Below, in pieces: positions 8,174 to 51,632 of a stretch of 64,000 nucleotides of DNA. The stretch lies in the NCBI GenBank assembly GCA_905178155.1, contig CAJINV010000008.1:1116001-1180000 (forward strand), read 5' to 3'. This DNA is from Amoebophrya sp. A120 (taxonomy: Eukaryota; Protista; Dinoflagellata). The position numbers and the translations under genes were made by a program. Each line of letters starts with the position of its first letter. The stretch's first letter is position 1. The notes under the pieces were generated by a model that made no database searches, was not told the origin of the DNA, and saw only the letters and a program-made list of their open reading frames with translations.

Positions 8174-10063
8174 ATGTCGCTGACGGTCCGACAGGCTCGG
8201 CAGCAGGCTCCTGCGCTGTACAATGTGCTGCAGGAGAAAGGAAAGAACCTTGACGACACCGATGAAATCATTAAGTTCATCAAGCCTTTGCTTCGACAAA
8301 ACCAGCTGAAGCTTGACCAACTCGGCAGTAAGATCAGGCTAATGGACTCGGACAAAAATAGTTTAAAGGCCACCCTGAACCAACTCGACGACGCAACGAC
8401 GGAATTCGAATCACTGTACGTCCACAAGCTGGCGCTCCTGATCTCAAACCTGCACTCAATAGCGGAAAAAATCGGCAGTACGCAATCGCTGACAAACTCC
8501 ATCATTCTGGAGATTCCCCATCCGTACTTCATTTTCAGTGTTGTTTAAGTTTATTTCACATAGGTACGATTACGAAGTTGAAGTAAAGACTGACGTGACC
8601 ATGGCGAGACCTTTGTGTTACAGGCACGTTGTTCTCGACTGTTTACGACGGTGCCACTGTTATGTGTTTTGTTGACTAGAGAAGTAAGCACTTGCTGCAT
8701 TTGACGAAACCTTTGGTCGAACGCAGGTATTTTCAAGTTCTAGCGCGCGACTACCAACTTCAGTTGGAAAGGCTGAAACACTCGATCGACGCCTGTGAGA
8801 CATCACTATGAAATGTAAAAATGTCTGGGTCTGGAAACTTGTGATGCTGGGTGGCGTCTCATGATGAGGCTACGAATACTGGCTGAGCATGACAAGTTTC
8901 TGAGCTCCTAGCTGTTGCCTATTCTGCATGACAAACCGCGGCTCTGCATCACAGAAAAACGGGGCTCTTGGGTAACGTGCATGACAGATTTAAGAGTCAT
9001 GCCAGACAAGCACGACAAACTCAAACTCAAACATGAATTCTTCCAGACCCAGACATTTTTGCAGTTCATAATCACTTGTTGGTTACCAAAGGGAAAGACA
9101 GGAGGCGCTGGCAGTGAACGAATTCCAAGAAAGCGCTGTTACGGTACATTGATTCATTTTTTTACCGTTGCGTGGTTTACTGCGATGAGTGCATACTTAA
9201 CCATAACCATGATAGAAAAGTACAGGAAGTGGAAATTATTGAGATCGAAGTCGAACTACTTCTATTGGCTTGCACAGCTTCGAAATTCTGTACCACACTC
9301 GACACGACAGGGCCGAAAAATCGAAGTTGCGTTACGTGCTAACTACGCTCAGTTCCGGTCCATTGCGGGAGAGCTACTAAAGCTCGAGGAGCGTATGGAA
9401 GAGCTGAAGCAAGCCGCGCAAGTCCAGAAAAATATCAACCTGCGAAATCTGGTTCTCGAAACCGGTACCTCTTCCGTAAGCGCAACTTCCATGACCAACT
9501 ATTTTGGCAACAACGGGGTTGCAGCGAACATGCTAGGAGGCAGTTTGGGCGTTGGGCAACAACCAGGTGGTGCCGGCGCATTTGCCCAGCAACCAGCTGG
9601 AACCGCTGCCCAGCCCGCCATTGGTGGTGGTATGTTCGGCGGGCAAAGCAATGCAAGTCTTTTTGGGCAACCAGGAGCACAAACACAGCCTGCAGCTACG
9701 GGTGGAGGTTTATTTGGAACGCAACCACAGCAGCCAGCGACCGGCGGTGGGTTGTTTGGAAACACGCAACCGCAAAACACCTCCACGGGTGGTGGCCTCT
9801 TCGGTAGCACCACCGCACAACAACCAGCGAACACAGGCGGCGGCTTGTTCGGAAGCACGCAGCCAGCCGCACAAAATACTGGCGGAGGACTGTTCGGCGG
9901 TCAACCGGCGCAGCCACAAAACACAGGTGGAGGATTGTTCGGGGGCCAACCAGCACAAAATACCGGCGGAGGATTGTTCGGTAGTCAGCCAGCACCGGCA
10001 CAAAACACTGGTGGAGGGCTCTTCGGCAACAGCGCCGGTGGCAGCATTTTCGGGGGCAGATAG
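8174..10063 (+). CDS. FG nucleoporin, Nup58/Nup49-like; exons 8174-8523, 8727-8806, 9076-9143, 9311-10063
   Basis: After removing GT-AG introns 8524-8726 and 9144-9310 and the TIR element 8807-9075, the protein reads [40 protein letters not shown]...[33 protein letters not shown] (Nup58-type coiled coil). C-terminal GGGLFG repeats follow. Confidence 0.75.
8807..9070. mobile_element. Introner-like MITE, family A (subfamily A1), in the nucleoporin CDS
   Basis: 30-bp TIR TATGAAATGTAAAAATGTCTGGGTCTGGAA / TTCCAGACCCAGACATTTTTGCAGTTCATA. TSD ATCAC at 8802-8806 and 9071-9075. Removal gives ...CETS|LVGYQ. Confidence 0.93.
9690..10055 (+). repeat. Coding tandem repeat encoding GGGLFG-(Q/P/A/N/T)n FG units
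   Basis: About 8 units of ggcgg(a/t)gg(a/c)(c/t)tgttcgg separated by cagccagc-rich spacers. Confidence 0.85.
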
Positions 10064-10874
10064 CTACTTACCCAAGCCGTCCTACTTGACGTCATGATTC
10101 ACGATGTCGGGCAGTTTCATACAACTACTTGCTAACAAAAATAGACAAGATCTCGGTCACGACATGTACGCACGACACAATGCTGACTTACCCACGCAAC
10201 AGCATATACAATTTCTTGCCAACAGAGGGGGAGCAGGCTGCCACACCTCCGAAACCCACAAGAAACGCAGGCTTTAAATTGAGTCTGTGCTAATGTTGTT
10301 CCCAGGGTTACTTTCGCGCCTCGAGACGCCATGGAAGTTGTTGTAATATCACCGCACAAATTGTGCCTACGTGTAGTCGTCCTCGTCCTTTCGCTTTGTT
10401 TATTCGCCCAACAATCGTACGAAGCCAATCCAAATGTTGATGAGTCAGGCAGTCCTCCTTCATCGTGCCTCTCTCCGTTCGTTCAGCTTGCTCGATGTGT
10501 GCGTGTCGTGTGGTTGTGGCGTTACCTAGAAGGTGCTCACAAAGTAGGTACACGGTTAATGCAATCTCGTTCTCCACCATCAGCATCACATCCGCGTTTT
10601 TCTCGTCGTCGTTCTCATCCTTTGTCAGCACCTCGAAATGTTATCCACTCCTCTGTGCCTGCGCGGGCACGGCTCTAGCGGTTCTGAAATCAAACAAATG
10701 AAAACTCTAGCCGTCAAGGTCAAGCTCAACAGCCCACACTTGTTTCTAGATACTTAAGTTGTATATGTTTTCTGAGTTTTCACTTTCTGATGATTCTTGT
10801 CAGGCCAGCTCCATGGCAGGCACCCTCCTCGAGTAGCATATGAAGCACAAAAAGAATAAAACCAGAAAGAAAAA

Positions 10875-13800
10875 GTGAAAAATTCGTTTTTTCAAGTAGA
10901 TTGTCGAACATCAATCTTGCACCCATTTGCAATGGTATTTCGGTATCACTATCTTTGCTTCGTCGAGCACATCTGGATGTTGACAAGAAGAGGAAGCGTC
11001 TCGTCAGTCTTTTTCTTCGTCGTTAGATCTAGTACGTTCATTGATGTGTTGTTTGCGCTTGCGGTCGGAACTGTGTCATCTTCAATGAACAAGAGCCGTA
11101 TTGTCGGTGCCGACAATAATGAAAATGCAGATATCAACCTCACGCTCACGCGTAGAAGTTTCCTCGAGAAGAAGAAGTCGAGGGCGAAGGTCCTGCGTCG
11201 AGTTCGGCGTACTACAAAAAAATGTAGTGGTGACGCTGAAGATGAATATGAAACCGATAAGAAGAACACAACGACCGTTACAAGTACGACGACACAGAGT
11301 AACCGCGCACCAGACACCAGCTCCGCGGGGGCCGCCAGCACAGTTACCCCAACTGTCACGCCGACGCCAGGTCTTCTCCCCGAGCTCGCGTTGGGAACGC
11401 GCATCGCCATCGATGAGTGCAGCGGGGAAGCGATATCCGGCACCAATCCCTGCGTCGTGTTCCTCAACTACGTTTCCTTCTCCCTGGAGGCCTGCGAGAC
11501 CTACAACCCGAATCGCTTCACGTTGAAGGCCTTTCGCACCGAAAACCGCCAAACGGACATCGCGGAGCAAACGAGTGTCAAGTTTTTGCTTTACGACAGC
11601 GTCTTGTGGAATCAGTTCAGCTTTGGAATCCAAGAGAACTCCTGGTACTGGCGAGCCGATCCAGCGGACCCGGGTTTTAACCAGGTGTCGAAGTCCCCCC
11701 CACTGAATCCCGACAATTGCGGCAACCAGCTCCATTTTGTTTCCCAGTCCTCTGGGACGACGTTTGCTGCCGATAACAGAAGCCAACCTCCTCCTCCTGA
11801 TTTGCGAGCGGAGCTGCGACGGTCCTTGGTCGATGATAGTGGGCCGGAGCGAGCGCCGGACTGCAGACGGGTGCTGAATTTCCGGGTAGATTCGACATCC
11901 ACCGCGGAAGACGGACTGCTCTACGTGCTTGTGGAGCGGAAGACGCCGGAAGAGCAAAATGCCCCGACAAAGAACTGTGTAGGATATCTTACAAGGGAAA
12001 ACGGGTAATTGAAACGGGATAGCGACTTTTCCAAAACTTTTACTTTGACTTTTGGCAAAGTCGCTATTTTGATCGTCGGCAATTCATGCTTTGCGACAAT
12101 TGTTTGGACCGTGCTGCCTTTTGCTGGTAAGTCCGCACTTTGGGAGTGGCAGAGCATGAAAGGGCGGCACCTCTTCGCCGCGGCGTGTGCCCGCCAGCTG
12201 CCTGCCATTTTGATCGACGCCTCCAAGCAGGCTGCGGGAAATGCCACCCGCCGCGCATCGGACGGGCAGCGCCTCCGTGGTCGGTTGTTCGCGATTATTC
12301 GCGAGCGCTGTGGGGCCCTGTGCGCATTTTGTGCACCTTTTGAAGTGGTGCGCGGGCGCTGGCCTTTGGCCTTTCAGTATTCGCCCGGATGTTGATCGCC
12401 GCCTCGCGCTTCGGAAATGCCGGGGCGCGTCGGCCCTCTTCGCCCTGAGCGCCTTTTAAATAAGCAATGGCACTGGCTGCCAGGGCCCGAATGGGCGCGC
12501 CGCCCCGCCGCGGTGCCTTGGATGGCACGCCGGCCGCGCGCGGTCCTACGTACCTTTAGCCCCCTACATTCTGGCCCGCCGCTTGGCCATTCTTACAAAA
12601 TAGAGGCCGTCGCGCCCCGGTATTCTGTATCCTGCCCGCCTTTCCGCGGTTACGCGACGCGACCGAAGCGCGCGCCAAAGAAAGGCGCCCCCCTTTTGCA
12701 ATCAACGGGCAGAGGCGGCTCCTCCGCTCGTCTCGCTAGCGGTGGCAGAAGTGTCAAGGGCCTGCGGTCGGGGGGCCACCCCGATGGCCGGCGCGTGATA
12801 TGGGTCTGTGGCGCGTTGTGGTGGCGCCACCTGTCTATTTCTGTTGCCCGTCTATTCTGCTTCGTCTGTTTGAACGAGAGAAGCAGAGAGGCAGCATACC
12901 ATGCGGTCCGACGTCGGACCGCATGGTATGGCGCGCGATGGTGGGCCGACCTCTCGCGCCAGGCCGTCCGTGCGTGCGGCGGGCGTCGCGATGTGTGGCC
13001 GACCTCTGCCGGTTGGGTGGGCTTCCCCGGTGGGGTGTTCTTTGGTTCAGGAAATGGATAACGCAACTCCCCCGGGTGGCCCGCCCCACAAGCGAGCCGG
13101 CGGGCGGGGGCCCCGTGGCCCCTCTGGGTGGTATGTTGCTCTCCAGCACGAGCCTGTGTGCCTGGGTGGTTTGCCTTCTCTTGTAAGATGTACTGTAGCG
13201 ACCCCGTGGGCCGGCTCTATCTCTGCAGCTTTCCTGACAAGAACCGCCAAAAACGGCCGGGGGCTTGGGGCGTTGGCTCGCGTTTTTTCGCATGTTGAAG
13301 ATGAAAAAAACCCAAGCGCGCCCGCCTGTTTGCTTTTGTCTTCAATGAATGCAGTCGCCGGCGGGCTCAGTCGGCCGCCGGTAGAAAGACTGAAAAAATG
13401 ACGTAGGGGGGCCGGCAAACGTGGCACCCTTCTCAGGCGTCGGCCGCGTGGGATTCTGGCGCGCGACTTGGGGTGCCCAAAAGGGCGCCCCAAAAAACTC
13501 GCCCGAAGCCAGAACAGCGAAGCCGTAGGGCAGGGCCGCGAAACCGGGCGCGAATCGAAAGCGGCCGCCCTTGTGCCGGGTTCTCAGCGGGGGGCGCTAG
13601 CTTTGCAAAAGGCGCGGGCGCGAAAAATAACACACAACGCAAAAAAGAAGAAACGCGCCAAGCGCGCGAAGCCCGCCCGCATCCTATGGGCCCGCTTTTC
13701 CTTCGGTTTTTGGGCGCCCCCCGCGGTGCCCGGGTCGGCCCGATAGCGTCGGGGTTGGCTTTCGGGAAGGCGTTTTGGCAAGTTGCCCAACGCCTGCCAT

Positions 13801-16800
13801 TTTCCCCAACCGGCCGCCATACCGTGCGGCATAACCTTACCCGCCCCGGCACGGCGGGCCCAGAAAAAGCAAAAACGTGGCGCGGGCAGAGGTCGGCGGG
13901 CAAAGAAGCGGCGCCGGCCTCATTATCTCCGCCCCGGCGGCTATGTTTGGCGCATTGAAGTAGGGGCGCAGCACGCCGCGCGGCCCGGCCTCGCATGTTC
14001 CTGCGGGCCGCATGGCGTGGCGCGCTTCGCTGGAGCTGCCCGCGCCTCACGTTTTGGCGTGGCGCCTTTCTTTTGGCGCTAGCTAGAGGCCGCCCGGCCT
14101 GCCCCTTTCTCTTTCATATTCGCCGTCCCCCCGCACTTACATACAAAGCGCCGAGACCATGCCGCCGCTCCAGAGTGCTCCGCCTAGGTCGCGGCGGCCT
14201 ACCTTGCGCGGCCGGCTTTTCGCGAGTAGAAAGGGCGCCGGCGCAGCAGGGGCACGCGCGGGGCGCCCCTCACATCTTGCTGCGCCGGCGCGCGCAATAA
14301 GTTCGCCCAGGAGGCTCTGTCCCCATTTTCGGGGAGACCGCCTCAGCCATGTAAAAAAGGGGGGGGGCAGCAGGATTCTGCGCAAGCCTGGCGGATGCGC
14401 AGCCACGCCTTCAGGCTTTTCGGCTTTTGAGGGGGCGGCGAAATCTTCTGTCTGAGTGCCGAAAATCTGCCGAGAACTTGCCGAAAACTTTCCCCCGAAC
14501 TTTCCCGAAACTTTCCCGCTTCGGGATCATTTTCGGACCCGAAAACTTTTGGTTGACTTTTCAACTCCCGGTCTGTAACTTTTGGTCGACTTTTAAACGG
14601 GAGAATTTTTGGGGAAGGTTTCGCGGAAGGTTTTCGCCGACTTTTCGGGAAAGTCCGGGGGAAAGTTTTCGGCAAGTTCTCGGCAAAGTTTCCGGCAGAG
14701 TTTTCGGTAGAGGGTCGGAAAAGTTTCGCCGCCCGGCGCCTGCCCTTTGTTCCTGCCCGCCAGCCGGGCCGCCCTCGGGCGGCTGCCTTGCGCCCGAAAA
14801 GAGGCACAGCCTCCCGGCAGGCACGCCTGCGGTTATTGCGCACGTAGCCAGGCAAGCGGCCGGCTCCGCCCCGGCGGGCGGCCGGCGCTATGTTGTCGCA
14901 TGCGCCACCGGGCAGCGGATTCACGCCCCGGGGGCGCCGGTGCGCGTGTCGCTCGCTTGCTGCGAACCAAGAGAGGGCGCCCGGGCTTCGGCGGTTGCTA
15001 CCGACCCCCTGAACTTGGCGCGTTGCGCCGTTCGGGGCGCGTGCGGGGCATGCGCTCCGCGTACTCCACACTTGCGGCGGCGGGCTCTTGGGGGCCCGGG
15101 CGCCGCTGGAGTTGGCGGTGGTTTGCCCAAACCCATAGACGGAAGGAACACCCGGCCCGGCCGCGCCAGTCCTTCGCCCCCCCGCCCGCGACCGACCTAG
15201 ACCGGGGCCGGCCACAGTGTGCCGGCAGGCAACAGCCGCGCGGGCGTGGCGCCTGTGCACCGCCGGGCCCGGGCGGGGGAGGCGGGCTTTTGGGGTGCCG
15301 AAGCGATTCCGCCGCATCCGCCAGGCGCCCGCCGGCCGGAGCCGGCCTGCCTGGGGGCCTCCCACCCTCTGAGTGGGGGGGGCGCCTGCATGTTGGGCCC
15401 CGCCGGCCTGCCTGCGCGCCCGCCTGGAATACCGGGCGGCGCCGCCGCGGGTCTACTTTCTACGTGCCGGCGGCCCGATTGCCACCCATCGTTCGTCTCG
15501 CCCTTCGCTCGCCCTGCGCCCCACCCTGTCGGCCGGGATTGGGCGATCTGCTTCGTCTCTATCTGGTCAGCCGGGGCCTGTGCCTTTGCTGTTTCGCTTT
15601 TCCGACAAGCATACCGTGCGGTCCGACGTCGGACCGCATGGCACGCTCGACACCGTTTCGGGCGGGGCGAGCCATATTGGGGCGCCGGGCGATGTGGTTG
15701 GTGCACGGGCGGAACTGCGCCCCTGCGTGCGACGTAGGGGAGGGGACGTCGTGGGGGCTTACTTACCCTCGGGGCCTGTTTGCTTGCTACGTGTGGGGCT
15801 GCCGGACGGTAAGCCGCTGCTGCGTGTGCCCAGCGTGCCAAATATAGCCTCCGTGGCGGAGGTGGTGAGGTCGGTGCCGCTGGCTGCCTTGCCCGCCGAC
15901 CGTTGCCCTGGCCAGCCACTGCGTGCTTTTTCTGGGCCCACCGTGCCGCTTTTGGTATGGCCATGCCGCGTGGCTTGGCCGTCTTTTGGAGAGCATGGCA
16001 GTTCTTTGCCAAATTTTCAGAACCCCTGCCCGAAAGCCAGCCCCGGCGGCATGGGGCCGATCCGGGCGCCGCGGTGGAGCGCCCTAAAACCGAAGGCAAA
16101 CCGGGCCCATGGCATGGGGATTGGCCTCGCGCGCTTGGCGCGCTTTTGCTTTTCTGTGTTTTTTCTTTGCGCGCCGGCACCCTTTGCAAAGCTTCCGCCG
16201 CATAGAAACCGGCGAAAAGGTGGGGGCCGCTTTCGCGGCCGGCCAAATGCTCCGAACCAACGAAGCCCCGCCCGGCCCTGTCGTGCGGCTTCGCTTTTCT
16301 GATTTGCCGCGAGTTTTTTGGGGCGCTCTTTTGCGCGCCCCAAATCGCCAGAACCCCACGCGGCCGGCGCCTCAGGGGGGTGCCCCTTTTCTTTGTCGGC
16401 CCCCCTGCGTCGTTAGTATTATCAGTCGGCGACCGATAGAGCCCGGCGCCGGCGGTTCGTTGAAGTCAAACAAAGCCCAACAGGCTGGCGCGCTTTGATC
16501 TTCTTCATGTGGAAGAGCGCGAAACAGCAGCACACACCGCCGGCAGCTTTTGGCCGGTGGTTGCTTTGCATTCAGAAAGCTGCCAGGGTCGGGCCGTTTC
16601 GCGGTGGCGGCCCGCCGGCGGCAGGAGGCGCGGGCTGGCGCCGCGATTCCGGGTGTTTGTGAGGCTTGGGCGCGCGCGTTTTTTGGCGAGGGCGCGCGTT
16701 GCCGGGTGCCCGGTTGCGTCGGGTTTAGGGTCTGGCGGACCGGCCCCCTTCCCTGTGTCGGTAGCCCTCCTCCTAGTCAGTTCCCGGGTAGGCCTTCCGG

Positions 16801-17264
16801 GCCTGGGGGGCGGGTGGGTGCGATGGGCGGTCATGGCCTTTTTCTTTAGGGCGCCCGCGCCGGCAGCCGTTGGCTGCGTGCGGTCGGCGGGTACCCGGCG
16901 CGCGCGCACGCTTCGGCGGGTGGAAAGGCGGTCGCTCGGGCTTCGCCGATCACCCGCGGGACAAGAGGAGGCGTCGGCGCCCAAGACCTCGCAGGCGCCC
17001 CTGTTCTGTCGCTTGGAGTATCTTCACTGCGTTTTTTCGTTCTGACTCGCTTTATCAAATCGTTTTCAATACCCTGAAATCCTGAAAAGTCAAATGAAAA
17101 GTTTTGGAAAAGTTCGAATCGCCCGCCAATTAGCCGTTTTCCCTTGTAAATATCAAGGACTAGAAAACGGGTCAACTGACGTGAACGCAAATGCCACACT
17201 GGCAGAGATGCGGCCAGTGTCGCCGATCACTCTCGCTTCTATCACGCCTGCACCGACAAGCTGA
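10875..17264 (+). CDS. Hypothetical protein with hydrophobic N-terminus, interrupted by a 5.2 kb TIR element; exons about 10875-11984 and 17160-17264 (true start uncertain)
   Basis: The ORF runs into the left TIR at ...PTKNCVG. After the right TIR and repeated AGGA the same frame continues LENGSTDVNANATLAEMRPVSPITLASITPAPTS-stop (TGA 17262-17264). Confidence 0.55.
12895..12930. repeat. Perfect 36-bp palindrome; diverged second copy at 15610-15645
   Basis: CATACCATGCGGTCCGAC|GTCGGACCGCATGGTATG; copy 2 is CATACCGTGCGGTCCGACGTCGGACCGCATGGCACG. Confidence 0.95.
13244..16560. repeat. Diverged long inverted repeat of about 0.7 kb: arm 1 about 13244-13975, arm 2 about 15820-16560
   Basis: Colinear reverse-complement blocks, e.g. 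GGGCCCAGAAAAAGCA vs TGCTTTTTCTGGGCCC, AAACGCGCCAAGCGCGCGA vs TCGCGCGCTTGGCGCGCTTT, GCGCCCCAAAAAACTCGC vs GCGAGTTTTTTGGGGCGC. Confidence 0.85.
14468..14685. repeat. Central inverted repeat (43-bp arms, 1 mismatch) embedded in 11-12-nt CCGAAAACTTT-like microrepeats
   Basis: TGCCGAGAACTTGCCGAAAACTTTCCCCCGAACTTTCCCGAAA (14468-14510) pairs with 14643-14685. Confidence 0.9.
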
Positions 17265-18520
17265 GGATGAGGTCGTGCTTAGGCTTACTCTTTTTTTTAT
17301 TTCAGTAATTACAATTGCGTCGTGGTCGTGTCCGAGGGCGAGGTACAATCTCAATCTTCTCAAAGTCCGCACCATCTTCCGTGTTCAGCTTCATGGATAC
17401 ATCGAACGGAGGAAAATCGTCATCACAGGGCGCTCGGTGTTCACCGAAATGGAGGCTGTTCAGTCGAAGTAGAAGCTTTTGGCTGTGTATGTTGTGAAGA
17501 TTTTTTTTTATCATTTTTGGCTAAGGAAACGTCGCTCTTGTTCAAACATCGCTCTTCTTGTCGCGTATCGTTTATCATTTGATCGCTGAGTCTTGCTCTT
17601 GTTTTGCTGTGACGACTTTTTCATTGATTGGAGGTCAGTGTGAAAGTTCAGGTCCCTTCGCTGTGTTGTGCCGAGAGAGGACGATGTCAATGTCGATTTC
17701 CGACATCATGTCCGAGCGAGAACTGAGCAAAGATCTGATCGTCGTGAATCGCCAGGTTGTTGTAGTTCCGTCTCAGTATGATCCGGGCGGCAAACAAAAA
17801 TCTGGCAGCAGGCCCGTCATTGGTGCTGCAAGTAACTCAGAAATAAATTCGCTCGTCGAACATGCTTTGTTGCTTACGAGCTGGTATCGCCGCTAGTCAT
17901 AGGCTTTTGAGATGAATTTTCGTGGACCAATATTGTTCCTACACATTTTTTACTAGAAACAGGTGCGAAACGCAAACGCCCGCGCTGCGCGCTAATTCGT
18001 TGCCTCTAGGTTGTAGCGCAACTGAAGCAAATGCAAATGCAAAGCATGTTTGGTGTAGCCTCCTCTCTTCTTGCGGTATGATTTTTACTTGAGAAAGAGG
18101 AAGATCGCGTTCTCGACCTGCACTGCTTATTCCACACTTGGTCCCCCTGTGGAACTTCTTTCAGTGAGCTCCTCTTGGTGAAGCTCTTAGTTTCAGCGCA
18201 TGTTCAAGCGGCTTCTCTTGGTATGAAGATCGATGATGAACTGCCTTCACAGCCAGAGACTTTCCTTGCGACGAAAAAGATGTCTTTTCACTTTCTCGAC
18301 TTTAGTGCGATGGAAAATATATGATATCTTGCGAAGTTAAGTATAATAGAGCGTCGTAATCAAGAAAGAAAGTCGTGGCTTTGTTTTTATGACATCAAAA
18401 TTTTGTTTTTGCTGGAAGATATCAATCCTACATAAAAAAAGAAGAACTAGAGGCTTCTTGCGTTAGAAGCGCCGTGGAAGATCTCCTTGCCTCCACGACC
18501 ATCAGGGACAAAGAAAGAAA

Positions 18521-21500
18521 ATGGAAATCGATCAAGACAATCGCTTCGGATCCTACGCTAGGACGAACAACATGGCCTCTACTTCGGCCATGAAGCGCGG
18601 CGGAGTAGTTTCGCCAGGTACAGGCGTGTTAGACAATCGATTTCGGCCGCAGCTGAAGCGCCAGAAAACCATTGACGAAAAGGATGAGCATAACTTGACG
18701 GGTGGGCCACCGAACTACGGCTACACAAGTGTGCAGAGCACTGGCGCGGTGTACACGATCGGCGGAAGCAGCAGCAGCACTGCTGGTAGCTACGCGCCGT
18801 CAAGTACAACAGCAGGCGCCAACTTCAGTGCCCGCTCGCTCGATGCAGCGATGCGCGAACGAACCTACCAAGGCGCGGGATCCGCGGGTCTGCACTGGTT
18901 CAATGCCTCGAATTCCAACAACAACAGTCGTCGCGGATCGCAGGAGCGGTACCACACACGCAATTATAACCCGCCTCCGCGTGCCGGCGTCAATAATTTC
19001 GGGACCTACTCTTCCGCGAACGGAACGCACCACGACCTCCCGGGAGCTGCCCCCGCCAGTCCGCAGCGGGCCGGCGGGCGGCGAAGTGGCGGCGGTACAA
19101 ACGGCCAACATCGTGGTGGAAGTTACAACGGGGGTCAGCATAGGGCGGTGAGTGACCTGATTGGCTCCATCTGGGATGTCTGCAAGGCGGTCGAGTCTTG
19201 CGATCTGGAAAACTCTGAGTTCGCAATCGATGCTCTCGCTGTGCCGGCCGTTCTAGGTAATATCAGGTTGCTTCTTGCTACTTTTGTTTCATCGAGAAGA
19301 TCGGCGCGAGACCTGAAGAACTCTTCTGTGTGTTATTTTGCTTTTTAACAATTTTGTCTTCGTTTCATCTACTCCTGTGTCCAAGCCTGTTTGTGTCGAT
19401 AACGAAGACCAATGGAGGCCCAAACAGAGCGAAAGACAAAGCTAGGAAAATTTTTTTCCTCACTTCCTTCACCGAAGGTGCTCGTGGTTTTCACACCATA
19501 GCGCGCGCATTTGGTCTGACGAAGTTGCAGCCCACGTGGAAGGAAAGCCGGCTCGGACAGCGAAGGCCGACGCTAATCAGTTTCCGTCCTGGGCCTGCGT
19601 CAGGTGGTGTGAGGTGTGTCGTCTACGAAGATGCGACGTTGTCTTCGTCCTCCTCCAGCAGTGCCTCTGCAAAGCGGATGTACCCTCACACGACAGGCTC
19701 ATCTTCGTCGAGTTCTTCCGGGAGCAGTGGTAGGACCAAGATTTGCCGGGAGGTGACCGAGCAAGAACTGGAAAAGTTCATTGCGGTCGAAAACGAGCGC
19801 TGTGGCGATCGCGTGCTGATCGCCAGCCCGGTTCGCGTAGAAATTATCACGCCAGAGGTGCGTGACGAGATCCAGATTTTGGACCTCCCGGACTATCCCG
19901 CGGCCGGAGCGACGGGCAGGCGGGCGCGCACCAGCAGTCAATTCAACATCGGAGCAGGCGCTGGCGGACGGTATTTTTAAACGTTTTTTACGCGAAGGAA
20001 AGCTTGCTTCCTTGCAGAGATTTCATCCTTTTTATTTTTTACATTTCGACTTCGAGGTCGTGCTACTGCTACTGCTATCGCTTCCCCTCAGGCTTTCCAC
20101 CACAATGATAGATCAGCGTGCGAGAAGATGAAAAACAACTGATGGAAAGTGATCGTGATCAATCCTGAACCAAAATTATAAATTCCCAAATACAAGAACT
20201 TTTGATTTTCGCAGGCCGCTGCACTCGCAGACAGGTGGCCACTACCCGTTCAGCTCTCAAAATGCAAACGCCTTTGACCACCACTCGAGCGAGGTGAACG
20301 CTTGGCCAGGTTGGGTCCGCAAACTGTGCCGCGGCAAGCCAGTAATCCTGGACCAGCCCGCCAGTCACGCTGAGCAGGGGAAAGAGTACTTTCTGCTTCC
20401 GATACCAGACCTTATCTACGACATTTATGGCTCATCTGCCGATGGCGACGCTGATGTGAATATGGGCGGAGGAGCAGGAACAAGAACAGACGCGCAACAA
20501 GACCAGATCATGCATGACCTCCCTGCACCAGATGATCCAGGTGCGAATCCATTGACGACACCACGAATCGCGGACGCAGGAGGTGCTGCAGACGCGGACA
20601 TGAAAGACGTCGACGGGCAGGATGGAAACCACGGCTCATCTTCAAAGGGGGGCGCCGTAGTTGCTAATACCGTCCGCAAAACGTCCAACGTCGCCATCAT
20701 AAACGGCGACCAAGACGACCACGACGGTGGAGCGGCCGACACCGCACTTCAAAGCGGGCAAATTTTCCGGCCGACGAAACGGGTTCGCTTCTTCAGCGCC
20801 CGGGACAGTTTGGTCGCGTATCTGCTCGCTTACCACGAGAAAAACTTCGTGAACCGCGTCGCGCCCTTGTGGGGGAAGCTGATGCACTCGAAGCTGCAGA
20901 ACTTGGACCAGCAGCACCGCGAGGTATTGCAGCTCGACCGGAACATCGAGACCACTATCATCCTCGCACGCAACGCTGGCGCGAGCGTTGCAGCCTGTTC
21001 GTCGTTTCTGCTGGACGGCAGCATACGACAGAACTCGTTTTCAGCACCATCATCTGGGCAAGGACAATATTCCAGCCGCGGTAGTTCATCTCCCACGGTT
21101 GCTGGTCAAACCCTTTTGGAGGAGCTCGTGCAGTTTGGGAAGGACTTGGAGGATGAGGAGCTGACAAACTATGGCAACGCGAGCGAACCCGTTCAACTGC
21201 CAGATTTGCGGTTCCAAACCTGGAGACAGTTGGGACAGTACTACGAATCCCTTTCTACCGCGAACAGCGAGCACTTCTTCAGCGAGTCGCTGTCCGGCGG
21301 GGCCGCGCTGGCGCGCTTGCTGAAGGAGTGCGAGGCTAGTGTGCACTTCGCGCACCCCAATCTGCCGAACAAGATGGACGAGGTCTTGCAGTACTTGAAT
21401 AAGGAGCTGAGTCAGTGCGGGGGCGTCGGCTTAAACCAAACCACTTGGCAAGACGTGGTCACGAAGATCTTCCAGTCCACAACTCATGGCGTACTGCAAC

Positions 21501-30544: not shown

Positions 30545-33500
30545 ATGTCGAATTGGTTCGACCGCGCCAAGGCGTGGACGAGCGAGGCCGCCGTGAAGGT
30601 AACGGAAGCGACGCAGAAGGGTTACGAAAAGACGAAAGATGCGACGATCAAGGCGAAGGAAATTGCCAAGCAAAAGCTGGGCCGCATGGAGACGGCCCAG
30701 GAGCTGACGAAGATTTTGGAGGAGAAGGCACGGAACGCGGTGACGCTGATATCAAATGTAAAAATGTCTGGGTCTGGAAGAATGCAAGTTTGTCATGCTT
30801 GTCTGGCATGACTCTTAAATCTGTCATGCGCATTACCAAAGAGCCCCACTTTTCTGTCATGCAGAGACGTAGTTTGTCATGCAGATTAGGCAACACCTAG
30901 AAGCTCAGAAACTTGTCATGCTGAGCCAGCAATTGTGGCCTCCTCATGATACGCCGCACAGCATCACAAGTTTCCAGCAGACCCAGACATTTTTGCATTT
31001 GATAGCTGACCCAGATCGCGGACTTGCACCGCTCCTGGATCTCGTCGATGAACCGGAAGGACGGGCCGAGCTACATTTTGCCCTCCTACGCCTGGGAGGT
31101 ATCAACTGCAAAAATGTCCGGGTCTGGAAGATTCTGAGACTTTGACTTGTCATGTACGTTTTGCATGAGCCATGAGGTCTGGAATGCGAGGCCTAGCATG
31201 ACAGATTCTCTGGGGTCTCTATCATGCCTTTCCTGCGTGAGAAACTCCCGCGCAATTTGGTCAAAAGCGGACAGCTTTTGGTACTCACGCAACACAGATT
31301 TTTGCATCATTCGGATTTAGCATGACAAGTTCTAATCTTCCAGACCCAGACATTTTTGCATTTGATAAGAGGAAAACTTGAACAACCCGGACGCCGATGT
31401 CGTGGAGCGCCAGTTGTCGACGGATGCTGCGGTCTATCAAATGTAAAAATGTCTAGGTCTGGAAGATTACAACTTGTCATGCTGTTTTTGGACTCTAAAA
31501 AAATTTGTATTGCATGGCCGGCAAGATGGGTGCAATTTGTGCTTACACGGAGAGGGCATTCCTCATGCGGAAGGTGCATCAGGAAGCCCTCTAAAAGTCT
31601 GCGATGCTAGGTCATGCATTACAAACATCATGGGTCATGAGAAATATGCATGACAAATCTCGCATTCTTCTAGACCCAGACACTTTTGCAATTCATACGG
31701 TCGTGGCGGAGAGTCCAGGGGAACAAACCTCGACCACCACATCATCCGGGGACACGAGCAGTTCGAAAGAAACGACGCCCGCAGGAGGGGGAAAGGAAAA
31801 GGAAAACAAATCGATATTTTCAAAAATCTCCTCCGTCGTCAGCAAACGGGCTGGCTCGCACGAGGCAATCATGGCGGAACGAGAAGCGGCCGCAAAGGAT
31901 CCAAACAAACGAATTCTGTCGTTCAAACAGGTGCAGCTTGTTTTCCTGACAAGTAGTTTTCACCAGTGAATGGGAGTTGTATCGCCAGTTGCTTCAATAT
32001 CAATGCCGTCACTACAACTTCTCATGCTACTACTGGTGCGTAATAATTTCCACGCATGCTGCTTTTGTGCTCGTCAAGAGTGAATTTTTTGAATTTGATT
32101 GGTTACATTCATTCCAGTTCACTTGGGCTAGTGGTGATGCCGAACACGACATCATCTCAACTCCAAGGTATTCCTGCGGTCCCGGGCATTGGAGATCACG
32201 ATGGAAACTATTTTGTGTGACGAGTACATGCGGAAGCGCTTTGCGCCACCAACACCTGACGACCACAGCTCGCATTCGTTTTACTTCTACTCGTTGTTGC
32301 AAAACGCGCTGTCGTGTCCCCCGGAAATCTGGGGCGGGCTCTTGCGGACCGCCACGGAAGCAGAGCTCCTGACTGACTACCACATTCGATGGCTGTCAAG
32401 GCTGTTTGGCGTGCTGAAGATCGACTGGTTGGACGAGGTATTCCACAGCGAAAGGAAAGACATGGCAGTTCGGGCGGAGCAGCTACGAAACGAAATTCGC
32501 AGCGTCAAGACGGCACTGCCGAGCCTCACTGATCTCGAGATTGAAAAGCACCACAAGAAAAAAGTCACGGCGAGTCGCGACCTGGTACTATATTTATAAT
32601 TTTTTTCTTTTCAGCTGGACGAGAATTGATTCGGGGGAAATCAGATGGAAACGAGATTGAATGATGATAATCATTAATCAATTCGAAATAAGAACACGAC
32701 AGGGACACAGGGCCATCATCAAAGATGAGGACGGCCATCCTTTAACTTTATCTATGAATTGGAACAAGTTCTGTATGCAACATCCACAACGAGGAACAGC
32801 GAAAATAAGTATGAATATGAACAACTTTTCGCCAGGTCCAACTGTATAAAGGACTCCGAGTCAATATGGAGGAAGCTTTGAAGCATCGACAAGTGACGCT
32901 GCAAAAACGTGATGAGAACATGAAGAATCTCGAACTGGAAATGACGAACTACAAGACCGAGCTGGGTTCCACCACGGTGTCAAGTATGGAAACCCGGGAG
33001 AAGCTGACAAAAGAGCTTGCGGAAGCAGCGGAAGTGCTCAAGGTAGATCTGGAATCCATTGACAAAGACCGTCTCGCTGTCGACCAGGAAATCGAAGAGC
33101 TCGAAGTGCGCAAGAAGAACCTAAAACTGGAAATCGAGGAGGTAAAAAGTTGTAAGGGCACTGCGACTTCTACTTTCTTGAATCTTTTGAATCCACCGAT
33201 TTCCTTGCATGACTTGTCCTTGAGTTTGAGTAGCACGATCTTATTTCGTACCTACGTACTTGTTGAGTTCCATAGTTGTTTCCGATCGCCAGCCCGGCAG
33301 ACATAGTTTTTGCTATAGGTGAATACAACGACGACTTCAGGTGACGCAATTGCTGCTCATAGCGCGGCAGAAGCAGAAGCACTTCATGACCGAGCAGGAC
33401 CAGAAGCGAAACAACATGTACTCCGAAAAGAACAATTTCAAGCGTCAGATCTCCGAGAAGGAGCGGCTGGCCCTGGAGTGTGAAATTGGGGGCAAGGTGC

Positions 33501-36150: not shown

Positions 36151-39100
36151 ATGGCACCGTCTGTTCCGCGGGAAGTGCAGAAATGGATGCAGATGCTCGC
36201 GCTGACGCATACCATCAAGGACGCAAAATTCGACTTGGCGAATGGGTACCTGATCGCGCAGATGTTCCAGCGGTACTACCCGAAGGACTGCTCTTTGTAC
36301 CAATACGAAAACGGTCAGTCCATTCACTGTAGATCCAACAACTGGGAGATGCTCTTCCGGCTCTTCAAGAAACTCAAATTTCCCTGCACTCGGGAAGAGT
36401 TCGACGAGGTGCTGCATCACGTGGACGACGCCGCCGTTTTGTTCCTGTGCAAAGTGTACGAGTTTCTCACAGGAAAGAAGGTTCTTTTTGTTTTTCTTGT
36501 TTCGTTTTTACTTTGTTTTATGCCGATGCTTTTCATTCGTCAAAGTCAAGTAAGAAGTAAAGCGCTTAAGTTCTGATGTCAGACAGTTTGCTTTACTTTT
36601 AGCTTTGACTTGTTCTCTCGTGAAATACGTTTTACGCGGAGAGAACATGATGTGCACAAACTCAGGTGGTGCTCTTTGGCAGTCCACAGAAACCAACGGA
36701 GCCGAGATTTGCGAAGCATACTGCCTCTTGGAAGCTGAAAGATGCGCATCTGGAGCGAATAGAGGACAACATTCACCGCACTATAAGACGAATCCAGACT
36801 CTGGAGCGGCACAACGACGATCTTGCCAGGGATCGCATAGGACCGGACGGTGCAGGTAAATGTAAATCTAAATTACTTATGCTCAACGCATGCAACGAAA
36901 ACGACGCTTGCAAGCTCAAACATTTTTGGTGCTGTATTTTTTGCCGTGAGCTGGTGTGAAGTAACGACGCTGATGCTTACTTAGCTGCTTTCAAAGTGAA
37001 TGCATTCTTATTTCTAATTCTAGGTGTTCGTCGCTTCATTGCGCTGGCCAAGGCACACGACACGGCCGACAACGACAAGCTAAGGTCGTTGAAATCCAAG
37101 ACGGAGACGGAAGTCACGGACACCCAAGGCCCAGTACGAGAGCAGACGGTGAATGCCATGCTCTCGAAAACCGCGGGCATGCAGAGCATGAACAGCGTGA
37201 GCAGTAACCAAACGACAAGACCAATCAAGAGTCAACAGACACACACGGCTTCGGTCATTGCCAATATCGGCTTTCACCAGCCGACAGGTATTTTTTCATG
37301 CACGATAGATAGATGCGGTTCATCTTCATACAGCTTGTACTTTTTGCTTTATGACGTTTTTGCAGACAATATCGGAAGATATAGATTTTCGAAACTCGTA
37401 CGTTTTTGCTCGTGGCTCGAACGGAGCCATTGGCGAACATTTTTTTTTCGTTGGTGCTTCTGCTTTCAACCTCTAGCTACGCGCCATGCATTTCCTTTTC
37501 ATTCAGGTACAATAAAAGCCACTCTGGACATCATAAAGCCACTGATTCTCGGGGAACTAGACAAGCAGACGTTGGCTCAGGCTGCGGATTCGGAGGAACT
37601 TGACCCAGTTATGGCCTTTATCGAGGCAACGCTGCGGGAAGCGCTCCCCGAGCCTTTGATCTTGAAGCTTTTCAAGGAGAAGTTGATAGCGCGCGCATCT
37701 CTCTTTATCGACAGTCTGTTGAAAAGCTCGGTGGAATTTTGGAAGACCTGGTCGGCCTTTCTCCCACTTCTCAACGAGCTACCTGCAAGAAGCAAAGTTT
37801 TCGAATCCGTATAACTCTATTCAAGCAATTTCGACCCTTGTATTTCTTTTTGATTTTTTTTTCCTTCGTCTATCATGTAAAAGTAAAAAAATCTAAATGT
37901 AAATGCGTTTTTGCTTGTGACGCTGCATTTCTTGGCTACAAAACACGACAGGCGATGGACTTCTGGAAGCGGGTCGGAGAGCTTTGCAAAAACCGGGACG
38001 AAGCGCTCACGCAAAAGTGCATGCTTAACGTGTGTCTGCCCTCCCTCGTGCAGCTTATGCACGCGGATGCGACGAAGCGAGAGACGTGCTGTCAGCTTGT
38101 CTACACCTTCTTAACGGGCGAGGTCACACACGCGGATCAGAGCGGGTTAAGCTTACCCCGCGCGGTAGCTCGTTTGCAGGCGCTGAAAACCGTGAAGGAT
38201 CTTCTGTTCGAAAAATTTGGCAACAAGTTCGTCACGAGCTACGTTCCGTGCCTAGCGTGCTTCGTGCACTGGGACTGCTCCCCGAGTCAGCCGCTGACCG
38301 ACCATTTGCTTGACTTGTATCTGTATTACGCCCTGCTTGCGCTGCAAATGCCCCAGCCACGACTGCGAATGGCGGGGCTCACACTCCTGACCAGCATCGC
38401 CGGAAGCGGGTACAGCCACCTCATATTTGTTTCATACGTATTTTCTTCGTCGCCGGCTCGTTTCTTTTCTCAATATGAATATGAATCATGCGAGCCTGAG
38501 GCTAGAGTGGTTCACAAACTAACCAGCGCTCACAGTGAGTGCGAGCACAAGACGAGCCGAAAAATTTTTGAAGCAATTCGCTTATTTCCGCTCTACTTGT
38601 CCTTGTGCACGATGATCCCCATTAGGCGGTGAGATTCTTCCACTCCAAAATAAAAAATAATCGAAGGTCGTCCGATGCGGTCTTGTCTCTGGTCGCATCG
38701 TTGAAGGGCTTGATGTACGACTCCTGGTGGGAGGTTCAGGCAGGTTTGTTGCTGCTGGTTTCCACACTCTTGCTGAAGTACTTCCCCGGGTACACCACGC
38801 AGCCCCTTTCCCCGCAAAACACGACCGCGGTGGAGGATCTGTTGAAGATTGTGAAGCACGTCGTGAACCCGCAGACCGCCAGCAAGAATGTGCTCCAGGT
38901 CGGCTTGAGCTATTTCAGCCGCAACCTGCACCAACTGGTGCTGCCGCCTACAATATCAAATGTAAAAGTGTCTGGGTCTGGAAGAATGCAAGATTTGTCA
39001 TGCATATTTCTCATGACCCATAATGCCTGTAATGCTTGAACTAGCATCGCAGACTTTTAGAAGGCTTCCTGATGCACCTTCCGCATGAGAAATGGCCCGT

Positions 39101-41136
39101 CTGTGTAGCAAAAACTGTACCCATTTTGCTGGTCATGCAATACAATTTTTTTTAGAGTCCAAAAACAGCATGACAAGTTCCAATCTTCCAGACCCAGACA
39201 TTTTTACATGTGATATACAACTGCACCACCGAAGGACGAGGACGGCGGGGAGGCACCGCAAACGAACGCCGCTATTGTGAGGAAAAATCCCCCCTCCCCA
39301 TATTCAAACAGGAAATTTGTGATGCTGATTTGTGACCACAAATCATGTTGTCATGCTAGAAGGGAAAAGACGCAGACTGTAGTGCTGGCTGGCGTAAGAA
39401 GGCCTTGCATCTTCAGCATGACAGGAGGCAACTGGAAGTGGGAAACAGCATCACAAATTGCCTGCAATTCAGGCCGCAAGTGCGTCCCTTGGCCTTCTAG
39501 CAACACAAGCCGATTTGGGGAAGCAAATCCAGCATCACAAATTTCCTGTTCGATATGGGGAGGGGGGATTTTTCCTCTTGATAGCCGCCGTGAAGTCTTT
39601 CTGCATGCTTTACGCAAACGCACTGACCAGCCAGCAGGCGGCCTTCCGTGGGAGGCTGCTGCCCCCAGAGTGCCAGGCCGGCGGGGGATCGGAGCAGGCC
39701 GGCGGCGCCGAGAGCAGCTCCATCTCGCAGCACCAGCCGGAAAAGGTGCAGTACGTGCTGGGAGAAAACACCGTCTTTTTTCAGGAGTACCCGCTGTTCC
39801 CGCTTGCGGCCGCATCCGGGGGCGGATCCTTATCCACAGAAAAAAACCCATCCACATCCATTTTTTGCATGGCAAACAGGTGACTTGATACGTGTTTTGC
39901 ATGACAAATTGGATGTGAGTGGGTTTTTTTCTGTGGATAATCCTCGCCCAGTTCCTCCAGTGCGAAGAACACGACGAGCCGGCTTTGCGTGGAACTCGCG
40001 GAGGCCGTGTGCGCGGTCGCGAACGGCAGTGGGGCCGCCAAGGAAGAGAGCGAAGTCGACCCGGTGGATATCCTGAGTAAAAACGTACCCAAACCAGAGT
40101 CAGGATGAGGATTTTGCAACACAAACCTAGGAGTTTTGTGAGTCACGCATGACAAGTTGGACTATGCAGTGTAGTGCAGGTTAGCAAGTGCAGCCGCGTC
40201 ACAGATTCATCTGCTCATCCTGTTCACAGCGTCACAAATTCCAAAACAGGATTGGAAATGGCTCTCATGGGGATGCGCATTACAAGTCTTCCTGTCTTTG
40301 CAATTCTGCATTACAACTCTGGTGTGGGTATGTTTTTACTCAGGATAGTGGAAAACGCCGCGGCCATACTCCACGTCCCGCTGCTGCCGCTCGACCGACT
40401 GGAAGCTGGGTATCAAACGCAAAAATGTCTGGGTCTGGAAGAGTGTAGACTTGTCATGCAGGTTTTCCATGACTCGTGGGGTCTGGAATGCGGGACCTAG
40501 CATGACAGAGTCTGTGAGGTCTCTGCCATGCCTATCCTGCGTGAGAAACTCCCTCTAAACATGGTCGACAGTAAGTGGACAGCTTTTGGCACTCATGCAG
40601 CACAGATTTCTGCATTATTCAGATTTAGCATGACAAGTTGCAATCTTCCAGACCCAGACATTTTTGCAATCCATACTGGGCACTTGGAAACCATCTACGC
40701 ACTGGTAAAGCGCAAAATACTCGACAACAACGGCCTGCCGGCGCAGAGCTGGGTCCCGGTCTACGACCTCTTGAAAAAGTATCTTTTCGTGGCGCTACTG
40801 GAGCCGGAGAACCACGCACTGGCCGCAAAAGTCCTGCGGGAGACCTTCTACGCACCGGAGGCGGGTCAAACCCGCCAATTGTTCATTCGCAATAGCACAG
40901 AGACTTTTGTCTCCATGTATGGCTTGTGTTTGGCAAACGATGCCGCCGACCCCGAGGCGGAGGACGGCGGGCCGTCGGCAGCGCTCGTCTCGGAAGCCAC
41001 TCTGTGCGAATTCGTGAAGTCCCTCATCAGCGAAGATTCCGAGCTCAAGTCGGCTTTCAAAAACGTCTTCCGCTACTACAAAGAGCAAAAGCGTGACGAG
41101 TTTGATCGCTCCATGCTCGCACCGCTGGCCTCGTAG
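36151..41136 (+). CDS. SPEF1/SPATA4-type calponin-homology (CH_2) domain flagellar protein with long helical C-terminus; about 11 exons, five TIR elements
   Basis: VPREVQKWMQMLAL...FDLANGYLIAQMFQRYYP...YENGQSIHCRSNNWEMLFRLFKK. The frame is continuous through five element excisions (PPT|TAPP, TNAA|VKSF, GGS|SPSS, DPVE|NAAA, EAG|HLET) to TAG at 41136. One junction near 38430-38670 was not resolved. Confidence 0.8.
38954..39215. mobile_element. Introner-like MITE, family A (A3, opposite orientation to 31435-31697)
   Basis: TIR TATCAAATGTAAAAGTGTCTGGGTCTGGAAGA / TCTTCCAGACCCAGACATTTTTACATGTGATA. TSD TACAA at 38949-38953 and 39216-39220. Confidence 0.93.
39273..39583. mobile_element. Introner-like MITE, family B
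   Basis: About 55-bp TIR TATTGTGAGGAAAAATCCCCCCTCCCCATATTCAAACAGGAAATTTGTGATGCTG / CAGCATCACAAATTTCCTGTTCGATATGGGGAGGGGGGATTTTTCCTCTTGATA. TSD GCCGC at 39268-39272 and 39584-39588. Confidence 0.92.
39831..39939. mobile_element. Introner-like MITE, family C (109 bp, almost entirely a hairpin)
   Basis: TIR TATCCACAGAAAAAAACCCA...ACATCCA / TGGATGT...TGGGTTTTTTTCTGTGGATA. TSD ATCCT at 39826-39830 and 39940-39944. Confidence 0.92.
40069..40347. mobile_element. Introner-like MITE, family D
   Basis: TIR TATCCTGAGTAAAAACGTACCCAAACCAGAGT / ACTCTGGTGTGGGTATGTTTTTACTCAGGATA. TSD GTGGA at 40064-40068 and 40348-40352. Confidence 0.92.
40411..40675. mobile_element. Introner-like MITE, family A (A2)
   Basis: TIR TATCAAACGCAAAAATGTCTGGGTCTGGAAGA / TCTTCCAGACCCAGACATTTTTGCAATCCATA. 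TSD CTGGG at 40406-40410 and 40676-40680. Confidence 0.93.
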
Positions 41137-46635: not shown

Positions 46636-48342
46636 TATAAAGTAATTCACAATTATTAATTTTTAAGGAGCGCAAGAAGTAGTCTTGTTGTTCAGCCGAA
46701 CAGAGAGCGCAGACACGATGATGTGCCTGTGCTTTCTTCACTACACCATGGACATCAAGGTGGTGGAACAGCTCGAACTGCAATCGAAACATTTGCAGCG
46801 ACTTCGAAGATCTCCAGCCAAGTGGCTACGAGAAGAACGCACTAAAAATATCAGCAGCCATCAGCATTGTAGTTTGTGTTTGGTGGTCAAATAGGCCGGA
46901 GTCGTCGTGCTCGTGTCACGAGCACGACGCTTTCCTTGACCAGACACATGCTAAGTATCGTTTTAATTCCTACCTAGAAAGAAAAGGAAAACGAAGCGGG
47001 AGATTTCACACGGCCAGCTCTCGTCATTGAGAGTAGGTACTAATATGTCCTGGCCCAACTTCACGCGTACTACTACTATCAATCTTGTATTTTGATGATT
47101 CTCATTCAATTCATAATTATACCATATAGTTTTTTTTTCCTTCGACCACCAGCAGAACCACAAGGGACGGGGCTTTGAGTTGTTGAGACAGTACTTCGTG
47201 AGAACGAATGAACTAGGGATGTTGACTAAGATACGAGAGGTCCCGTGTTGGCTTTTTGAAGAAAGTAAGAAAGGCTGGCGATGAATGAGGGTTGTTTTCC
47301 TCACTTTTTCATGGAAGCTGTGCAGCTTTTTGTTAAGACGCGCCCATTTTTTTTTTTTTCAGCCGTGCCTAAAAGCAGCCAAAACATTTCTAGAAAATGG
47401 TGCAAGCCGAAGCCCTTGCACTTGTAAGTGTAATGGCAATTAATACTGGCCAGGGAGTGCTGAGGTGACTCTGTCACCAATTGTAATTCATCATGTTGTG
47501 TATTTGTTTTGCGCTTGATCGAAATTGCGACTCAACAGTCTGCTTTTGCATTTGGTGGCAGCGACTTACCCGCGTTGTTCCATCCCGGCTCTCTTTTTTA
47601 TTTTTCGATCACTATGTACTTATATATCACAGCGTCGCACTGGTCGATACGTGTACTGGTCGACGCGCCCTGCTTCTCGCAGCGTGCGCATCTTCCAGCC
47701 CGCGAATGAAGTTGGCCAACGGGCGTTCCACACGAGAAAACCTGGCCTCATTCAACGGCGTTGCCCCTATGGCATTCGGCGGGTAGGTTGTTCCTACCGT
47801 GCGTCGGAGGAGGGAGTAGTGCCGAGCCCAGCTCGAGATAGTTATCATTCATATCGCAATCAATCTACTCGTGTCCACGCCATGGCCACCATAGCTAGAG
47901 ACGAGATTTTTGTAGGCTGCACATCATAAATACTTTAACTTTTCATTTATCATATTTCAGTGCTCTTTCAGAAGAGACACCATAGAGGCATATTCGTAAA
48001 AGTAACTACTGCTGATCAATATGAATATCGAGAAACTGGTAGCGTGTGGCCGATGTCTTTTCAGTATGAGTATGACTATATTAATTTTCAGAGATACAAT
48101 TACAAGCAACGAACTATGTGTCTCCATTTTTTTCTTCGTCATTGTCGTGCCCCATGGTAACGAAAAGCACCGCGTTGCTCGATCATGATACCATCGACCG
48201 CTTCTTCTGCAACACCTTTTCCTGCCGAGATGGGCGTCAAGAAGTGGAGAGCACAATTTTTTTTTATTCAAAAGATTTTTATTAAGGACAAGAGGGGGCG
48301 CCCCTACCGGAAGACCCGACGCAACTACCCTGGGACCCCGCG

Positions 48343-51300: not shown

Positions 51301-51497
51301 TCCAATCCTGCCCGGTGACCCGCCCATTCTTCGAAGCCGCGGGGGTGCAGGGGTTAGAAGAGTGCAAAAAGAAATGGAGCGGCGCAGCCCGCGCGCTAAC
51401 ACAGGCCAACGAACTCCTCACGCCCCTGGTGGGCCCGTTCCCGGCGGTGCGGCACCTCTGCTGGGCAGGAGGCCGGCCGGACAGCGCGGAGGCGTAG
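48343..51497 (+). pseudogene. LINE pol ORF (reverse transcriptase-RNase H-zinc knuckle) with one frameshift near 50188
   Basis: RT motifs AAGPDDI, RPVALTSCLAKVWER, FLDLSSA, GVPQGTCLGP, YVDD, FLGVWFDRRLTF. RNase H motifs YCDGSA, ICTDSQS, VPGHAGIAGNVVADHLA. C-terminal CALC...HFVQSCP. The frame switches between YWHGA and KEKAALNSVQ. Confidence 0.88.
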
Positions 51498-51632
51498 CAC
51501 ACCACACAACCAACAAAACGCGAGACAACCAGGCGACCACCAACGAGCACGCAGACGCTGCAAGTTAGTGATCCACCCGCCGCAGGAGTATCCAGACGCC
51601 TGCCACGGTGGTGATTTTGAGTTTATATGTCC

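Follow-up and report, generated by a model that had tools for sequence, protein, structure and literature searches.

A 5.2-kb terminal-inverted-repeat element within a coding exon of Amoebophrya sp. A120, likely a very large non-canonical introner

The element, its host gene and the annotated cut

The stretch of DNA analysed here—64,000 nucleotides of the dinoflagellate Amoebophrya sp. A120 (contig CAJINV010000008.1, positions 1,116,001 to 1,180,000, hereafter the window)—contains at about 12-17 kb a GC-rich block bounded by a 65-bp inverted repeat. The block corresponds to an element of 5,161 bp with terminal inverted repeats (TIRs) and a target-site duplication (TSD), lying within the coding exon of a gene for an unnamed protein, designated here as P0002. 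The GC content is 65% across the element versus 54% in the host exon. The main features are as follows:

11989..17149, no strand: the element, 5,161 bp, 65% GC, TTA...TAA, without recognisable coding region, likely multi-copy
11984..11988, + strand: left TSD, ATATC
17150..17154, + strand: right TSD, ATATC
11989..12053, + strand: left TIR, the first 16 bp perfect, 53/65 overall
17085..17149, - strand: right TIR
10932..11988, + strand: coding part of exon 1 of the host gene (P0002), the cut possibly lying 0-5 nt further left
12006..12008, + strand: in-frame TAA within the left repeat, at which an unspliced product would end with 358 aa
17155..17264, + strand: coding part of exon 2, the last 36 residues of P0002, with TGA at 17262-17264

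The two TIRs are 82% complementary over 65 bp, their outermost 16 bp being exact complements, and the ATATC copies flanking them form a perfect 5-bp match. A first-pass annotation, made from the sequence alone, had already recognised the inverted repeats and the GC-rich interior, but started the element with TAT at 11985 instead of TTA at 11989, took TAGGA/AAGGA for its flanks and regarded the right end as imperfect; with the ends given above, neither these flanks nor the imperfection persist. The misplacement is explained by the palindromic character of G+ATATC, owing to which the predicted RNA stem of the TIRs extends over one bulged C into the duplication. The ends were also recovered without bias, by scanning the window for inverted ends with an exact 5-bp direct repeat on either side, which returned 16 candidates; 11989-17149 was found with 19/20 terminal bases matching, eight candidates were small elements (see below) and the remainder represented inner arms of the large element or chance.

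The host open reading frame (ORF) matches P0002, a protein of 388 aa from Amoebophrya sp. A120 (CAD7957446.1, GSA120T00006461001.1) with no known family, which was the sole match in a search of 5.8 billion proteins with 7,998 candidates scored. Read without interruption, the ORF stops at 12006-12008, i.e. 20 nt inside the element and, as previously noted, within the left repeat. P0002, by contrast, carries the C-terminal tail encoded behind the element, its junction reading ...KNCVGYQGLENG..., ...VGYQGLENG.... In a grid of 90 x 100 boundaries, only six single cuts reproduce P0002, all of them 5,166 nt long, corresponding to the element together with a single duplication copy. Their registers are AT..AA, TA..AA, AT..AT, TC..TA, CT..AT and TT..TC, so that GT/GC/GA..AG or AT..AC ends occur in none of the six. 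The ends, the duplication, the interruption of the frame and the identity of P0002 with the exon-plus-tail product of the 5,166-nt cut are thereby directly established.

Concerning the origin of that cut, the A120 gene models are, according to section 25 of the source, Gmove models based on aligned transcripts and proteins, no ab initio prediction having been used (Farhat et al. 2021, PMC7789003). Among 1.84 billion representative proteins, P0002 has two matches—itself and a 100-aa match, P0005, at residues 204-302—and no relative spanning the junction. Since the models involve no ab initio prediction and no relative covers the junction, we infer that a joined transcript most likely lies behind the P0002 model. 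The splicing of the large element, which rests on this transcript-based public gene model, is accordingly likely. As for the tail, removing 11985-17159 does leave, as had been proposed, an open frame with 34 codons; stop-free stretches of that length were, however, obtained in 44% of 5,000 random ones taken from the window, so that the open tail is weak evidence alone. Its frame ranks top of six on the codon model, and the GC content falls past its stop.

The same cut at small elements of the window

Nine small elements of 109-311 bp with TAT...ATA ends are present between 8807 and 40675, their 5-bp duplications being exact in eight cases and carrying one mismatch in the ninth. Five of the small elements lie within the gene for P0003 (920 aa, 36151-41133), which consists of 11 exons, contains the CH_2 and CAMSAP_CH domains and shares 51% identity with protein P0004 from Amoebophrya A25 over the query exon. 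Half of its ten introns, located in the 5' half of the gene, show a GT..AG register, and the five in the 3' half are TIR elements, P0003 thus being a clean locus at which GT..AG introns and TIR introners stand side by side with an A25 orthologue available. The TIR introns measure 267, 316, 114, 284 and 270 nt, each equal to the element plus 5 nt and without any GT/GC/GA..AG register. At three of these five junctions the A25 orthologue aligns on both sides (two gapless, the third with a short gap), and the remaining two flank a stretch absent from A25. Left unspliced, small elements lead to stops within 2-28 codons in the four tested. Because a conserved gene has its frame restored by this rule of cutting at five small elements, removal of an element together with one duplication copy is real in Amoebophrya sp. 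A120 at the small elements, and the cut at the large element obeys this very rule.

The terminal sequences point in the same direction. All 18 ends of the small elements, drawn from no fewer than four dissimilar sequence types, agree in TAT, a G at position 9 (G9) and AAAA at positions 11-14. Both ends of the large element have in common with them T1, G9 and AAA at 11-13, and thus at least three As past position 10, but begin with TTA instead of TAT and have C14. On a matrix derived from the small elements, they fall within the top 0.9% of 14-mers of the window; the ends proposed in the first-pass annotation reach 9% and 42%. The idea of a giant member of one insertion system therefore holds as far as the cut rule and the shared T1, G9 and AAA are concerned, but not in the sense of an enlarged copy of the TAT...ATA family: the large element likely belongs to the same system as the small ones, in another family.

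Several observations concern the small elements themselves. G9, invariant in their ends, is not mentioned where the text describes the A120 motif (PMC7789003). The element at 31100-31367 has the imperfect duplication GGAGG/AGAGG, the change creating a GT..AG register, and it may represent an introner turning canonical. That at 8807-9070 is a member of a very high-copy 260-bp family (bin depth 269,186 versus about 45 in DNA run X1, introduced below), and the gene hosting it has a downstream exon rich in GGLFG repeats, in which it resembles an FG nucleoporin.

Sequencing reads and the competing explanations

Read evidence was drawn from four of 11 listed runs, X1 (DNA), X3 (taken by guess as RNA), X7 and X9 (raw RNA). 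In X1, flank contigs with 0 differences cross both junctions (9043-12016 at depth 42 and 17107-21000 at depth 42.6). The flanks have a depth of 42-54, compared with 238-354 in contigs of the element interior, which differ from the window at 1-8 letters per 300-570 bp and are 98-99.7% alike. This suggests about 5-8 near-identical copies of the element, contig depth not being a copy number. From the flank contigs, the insertion is present in the DNA, with no common empty allele visible in X1, a run possibly from the same sample as the window. The depth is higher still at 17095 in the right repeat (1,223) and on part of inner arm A (1,479; see the last section), suggesting shorter relatives. Concerning RNA, an X3 contig covers the host ORF at 10806-11810 with depth 6.2 and 0 differences, and X3 skips two introns with GT..AG registers further downstream (19255-19475 and 19970-20213). 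Inside the element, X3 has zero depth in seven of ten bins, including the one right after the left end, the other three lying on the inner arms. X3 depth left over by both ends (about 775 and 600 depth-bases) fits either a junction contig of depth ~4 or short matches to related repeats, and was not counted. X7 is thin on the flanks, and X9, with three of 3.3 million reads placed, all on a small element, is uninformative for the large one.

Taken together, it is in our view probable that the 5,161-bp TIR element, sitting in a coding exon, is excised from the pre-mRNA as a non-canonical intron along with one duplication copy, by which the original frame would be restored. The earlier proposal of a non-canonical intron finds support in the tail of the public protein, the splicing itself not being seen in the reads. 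It should be pointed out that several results weigh against this reading. No read or contig was observed across the element junction, which is also absent from the 15 of 48 joints listed; the X3 contig stops at 11810, 178 nt short of it, in a gene that is weakly covered. The tail has a negative codon score (-0.15 bits per codon versus +0.02 for exon 1), and only its 36 low-complexity C-terminal residues would be lost without splicing, so that selection for removal may be weak. The comparison of C-termini in orthologues that had been proposed found no partner: the annotated A120 protein has the tail, but no orthologue of P0002 that would show its conservation was found among the 1.84 billion representatives. 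The ends are TTA, as opposed to the TAT of A120 introner families. Finally, the geometry is that of published reverse-transcriptase artefacts.

The last point leads to the explanation of a gene cut short in vivo by the insertion (358 aa, stop at 12006) and of a joined complementary DNA (cDNA) that arose by a jump of reverse transcriptase between the ATATC copies at the hairpin's base. A stable hairpin with short direct repeats at its base is a known substrate of such skipping, one repeat being kept (PMC8240250), and the small number of residues at stake, the want of an orthologue supporting the tail and the missing junction among the listed joints all agree with it. A jump of this kind would, however, require abundant read-through RNA over 5.2 kb, whereas X3, at a depth that is low overall, is empty in most of the interior bins; removal of this type is moreover real at the five small elements, where the cut restores a conserved-gene frame. 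We regard the jump as unlikely. Alternatively, the joined transcript could stem from cells, or from a haplotype, in which the insertion is missing (through an empty site or precise excision from the DNA), the inserted allele remaining unspliced. Removal of the element and one duplication copy yields exactly the pre-insertion sequence, which makes the two kinds of cDNA indistinguishable, and the element family, judged by the likeness of its interior contigs (98-99.7%), looks young. A common empty allele would nevertheless break the X1 flank contigs, which continue into the element without interruption and at single-copy depth; even with the caveat that contigs lose rare variants and that X1 may be the window's own sample, this origin appears quite improbable. 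Both explanations are kept alive by the fact that only 36 low-complexity residues depend on the removal, with no orthologue to test them.

The remaining two alternatives concern the boundaries and the assembly. The GA...AG junction suggested in the first-pass annotation would define a spliceosomal intron at 11983-17157 (5,175 nt) with sites adjoining the element. Such a cut does exist, it is in frame just as the 5,166-nt cut 9 nt apart from it, and in Table 1 of the source 2.95% of A120 introns are of the GC|GA-AG type (PMC7789003). It would yield ...VGLENG..., though, whereas the annotated product keeps 9 more bases (...VGYQGLENG...) and its cut has no canonical register; as it disregards the perfect duplication as well, we consider this intron very improbable. 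That the element was misassembled into the site from a repeat copy elsewhere deserves hardly any credence: the interior is indeed repeated, the window copy departs in many positions from the majority contigs and no listed piece covers the whole element, but error-free DNA contigs cross both junctions, and misassembly does not produce an exact duplication at both ends.

Under the preferred reading, removal of the element from pre-mRNA, the insertion would have involved a transposase or integrase acting in trans and cutting the target with a 5-nt stagger. In the RNA, the terminal repeats could pair (predicted -82 kcal/mol with flanks), bringing the duplication copies together across 5.2 kb. Cutting and joining would then take place within the duplication, by the activity that would also remove the 100-300 nt introners of A120, and the pre-insertion sequence would be restored. 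Elsewhere in the genome, a small family of near-identical copies would be expected. By what means Amoebophrya excises the majority of its introns in spite of their lacking GT-AG ends, and what mobilises them, is treated as an open question in section 16 of the source (PMC7789003). A size about 20 times the usual one with the same cut rule suggests that neither length nor interior is of importance, but only the ends that pair and the duplication. The excised 5-kb product would be big enough for detection as a lariat, circle or linear RNA, and an element of 5 kb separates true splicing from reverse-transcriptase skipping more sharply than a 250-nt hairpin does. The surprise is limited, the introner class having been described in A120 and the intron being already implicit in the public gene model.

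Relation to known introners, the element interior and further features of the window

The element has the structural marks of Amoebophrya introner elements, i.e. non-canonical ends, a 16-bp inverted repeat and a 5-bp direct repeat. The introners of A120 are described as having an inverted repeat of 8-20 nt, a direct repeat of 3-5 nt and TAT starts, with no transposase reported in A120, and its non-canonical introns average 240 nt, the introns of A120 having 46.5% GC (PMC7789003). With the introners of A120 and A25 the large element shares the non-canonical ends, the inverted and direct repeats, the As at 11-13 and the fact that no transposase was found; from those of A120 it differs in its 5,161 bp, its 65% GC and its large inner arms and palindromes, and its TTA ends correspond to the A25-type start without the two following purines (PMC7789003). 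Introners in that source are, moreover, repeated in the genome, and their junctions are backed by no fewer than three RNA-seq reads. The analysis there was limited to introns of 40-1,000 bp; its annotation holds introns of up to 35,152 bp, long introns in A120 being already on record. Other Amoebophrya strains have mainly GT-AG introns (PMC12005148).

Among systematically catalogued introners, the family median lengths are 30-654 nt (Gozashti et al. 2022, PMC9860276), and the later catalogue lists 58 families in A120, mostly as 'TIR DNA, unknown family', with TIR elements of up to about 1.6 kb (fam86); the alignment spans of A120 families are longer, a few rows having stray multi-kb matches (Gozashti et al. 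2025, PMC12130899). Of these families, fam38 resembles the element in its 5-bp TSD and TA/TA termini, and two others in a terminal repeat of 16 bp: fam103 (27 copies, about 1,190 bp, 24/27 with non-canonical 5' sites) and fam135 (four copies, all non-canonical, the repeat lying on a 1,180-bp match) (PMC12130899). The latter two, compared by description only, may include the large element or be related to it. The introners of Polarella and Symbiodinium are likewise dinoflagellate TIR elements becoming introns, some with 5-bp duplications, but in the rows seen they start with GT/GC/GA and end with AG, a register that the element lacks (PMC12130899). Nonconventional introns of euglenids are similar in having non-canonical ends paired terminally, TSD-like repeats, lengths of up to several thousand nt and a removal that is not understood; they differ in belonging to an unrelated lineage, in their CAG/CTG-type signatures and in the circular excised products reported there (PMC11282704). 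A literature search, with subscription papers and figures outside its scope, revealed no paper on kilobase-sized TIR introns of A120 beyond those cited. The element likely works like an A120 introner and does have the corresponding structure, without being a member of the TAT-type families; it is likely a very large non-canonical introner.

Inside the element, the following features were delineated:

12895..12930, no strand: palindrome P1, perfect, 36 bp
15608..15647, no strand: palindrome P2, a second, slightly decayed copy of P1
13199..13990, + strand: inner inverted arm A, some 790 bp long, sharing about 70% identity with A'
15804..16609, - strand: inner inverted arm A'
14457..14697, no strand: central hairpin with lower GC (50%) and 50-bp arms that are 94% complementary

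The arms, the central hairpin and the palindromes share no single mirror centre. The hairpin resembles the terminal repeat weakly, the same likeness being attained by 5 of 300 shuffles. With regard to coding capacity, the 27 longest of the 43 element ORFs of at least 80 aa gave no Pfam match at E 0.1, the longest one had no relative in the protein search and all seven long ORFs tested scored negative on the host codon model. For these reasons, the element is likely a non-autonomous TIR DNA transposon. Autonomous TIR elements and Ginger-like or Polinton-like elements are characterized by ORFs for a transposase, integrase, polymerase or capsid protein, none of which emerged from the Pfam comparison of the 27 ORFs, a very divergent or split gene being conceivable. 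Miniature inverted-repeat transposable elements (MITEs) are a few hundred bp long; the large element shares with them the TIRs and TSD in the absence of a transposase, but not, at 5,161 bp, the size. An Rfam 15 scan of the element for self-splicing and other structured RNA families gave two matches (E 0.31 and 0.71), both far under the gathering score. By BLASTN, the element has no match elsewhere in the 64-kb window, and exact-pattern scans of metagenome contigs revealed 0 loci for the terminal repeat and 0 for the palindrome. The 16-mer was present at 21 loci of viral contigs, none of which exceeded 26 aligned bases or fell below E 0.042 against the element, and these were dismissed as chance.

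A more far-reaching scheme can be envisaged, which we put forward as speculative and, taken jointly, doubtful. According to it, the element would belong to a young family of non-coding fold-back elements of 5 kb, whose base-exact excision from mRNA would need nothing but the pairing of the ends, across 5 kb and without a spliceosomal dinucleotide. The terminal code common to TAT and TTA ends (T1, G9, AAA at 11-13) would be recognised by two activities, the mobilising enzyme and an RNA cutter independent of the spliceosome; an undescribed route of replication or excision would use the palindromes and arms as cis-sites, and such elements would be the full-length parents of the A120 introners.

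Several further details of the interior may be mentioned. The inner-arm parts 13515-14015 and 16020-16520 show extra DNA depth (1,479), X3 depths of 7.2 and 3.5 and, at 16050, a variant; the inner arm may be common to the element and a shorter, transcribed relative. In one X1 contig, 13497 and 16219 are joined on opposite strands, as though another copy had undergone a rearrangement of its arms. Reading the inner arms as a nested element found no support, the sole duplication-like 5-mer (CTCAG, 13437-16370) falling within the arms. The motif TCTTACAA (12591-12598) and its complement (13181-13188) recur within the element, bracketing palindrome P1. Between the left end and 13186 lie 1,198 bp, a span near the 1,190-bp length of fam103 (PMC12130899); having no flanking duplication, it may be due to chance or mark a decayed inner end.

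Outside the element and its host gene, a second GC-rich block (59-65% GC) extends over 48001-52000, and 18574-21000 contains the well-covered downstream gene, the two GT..AG introns of which are those shown by the X3 contig.

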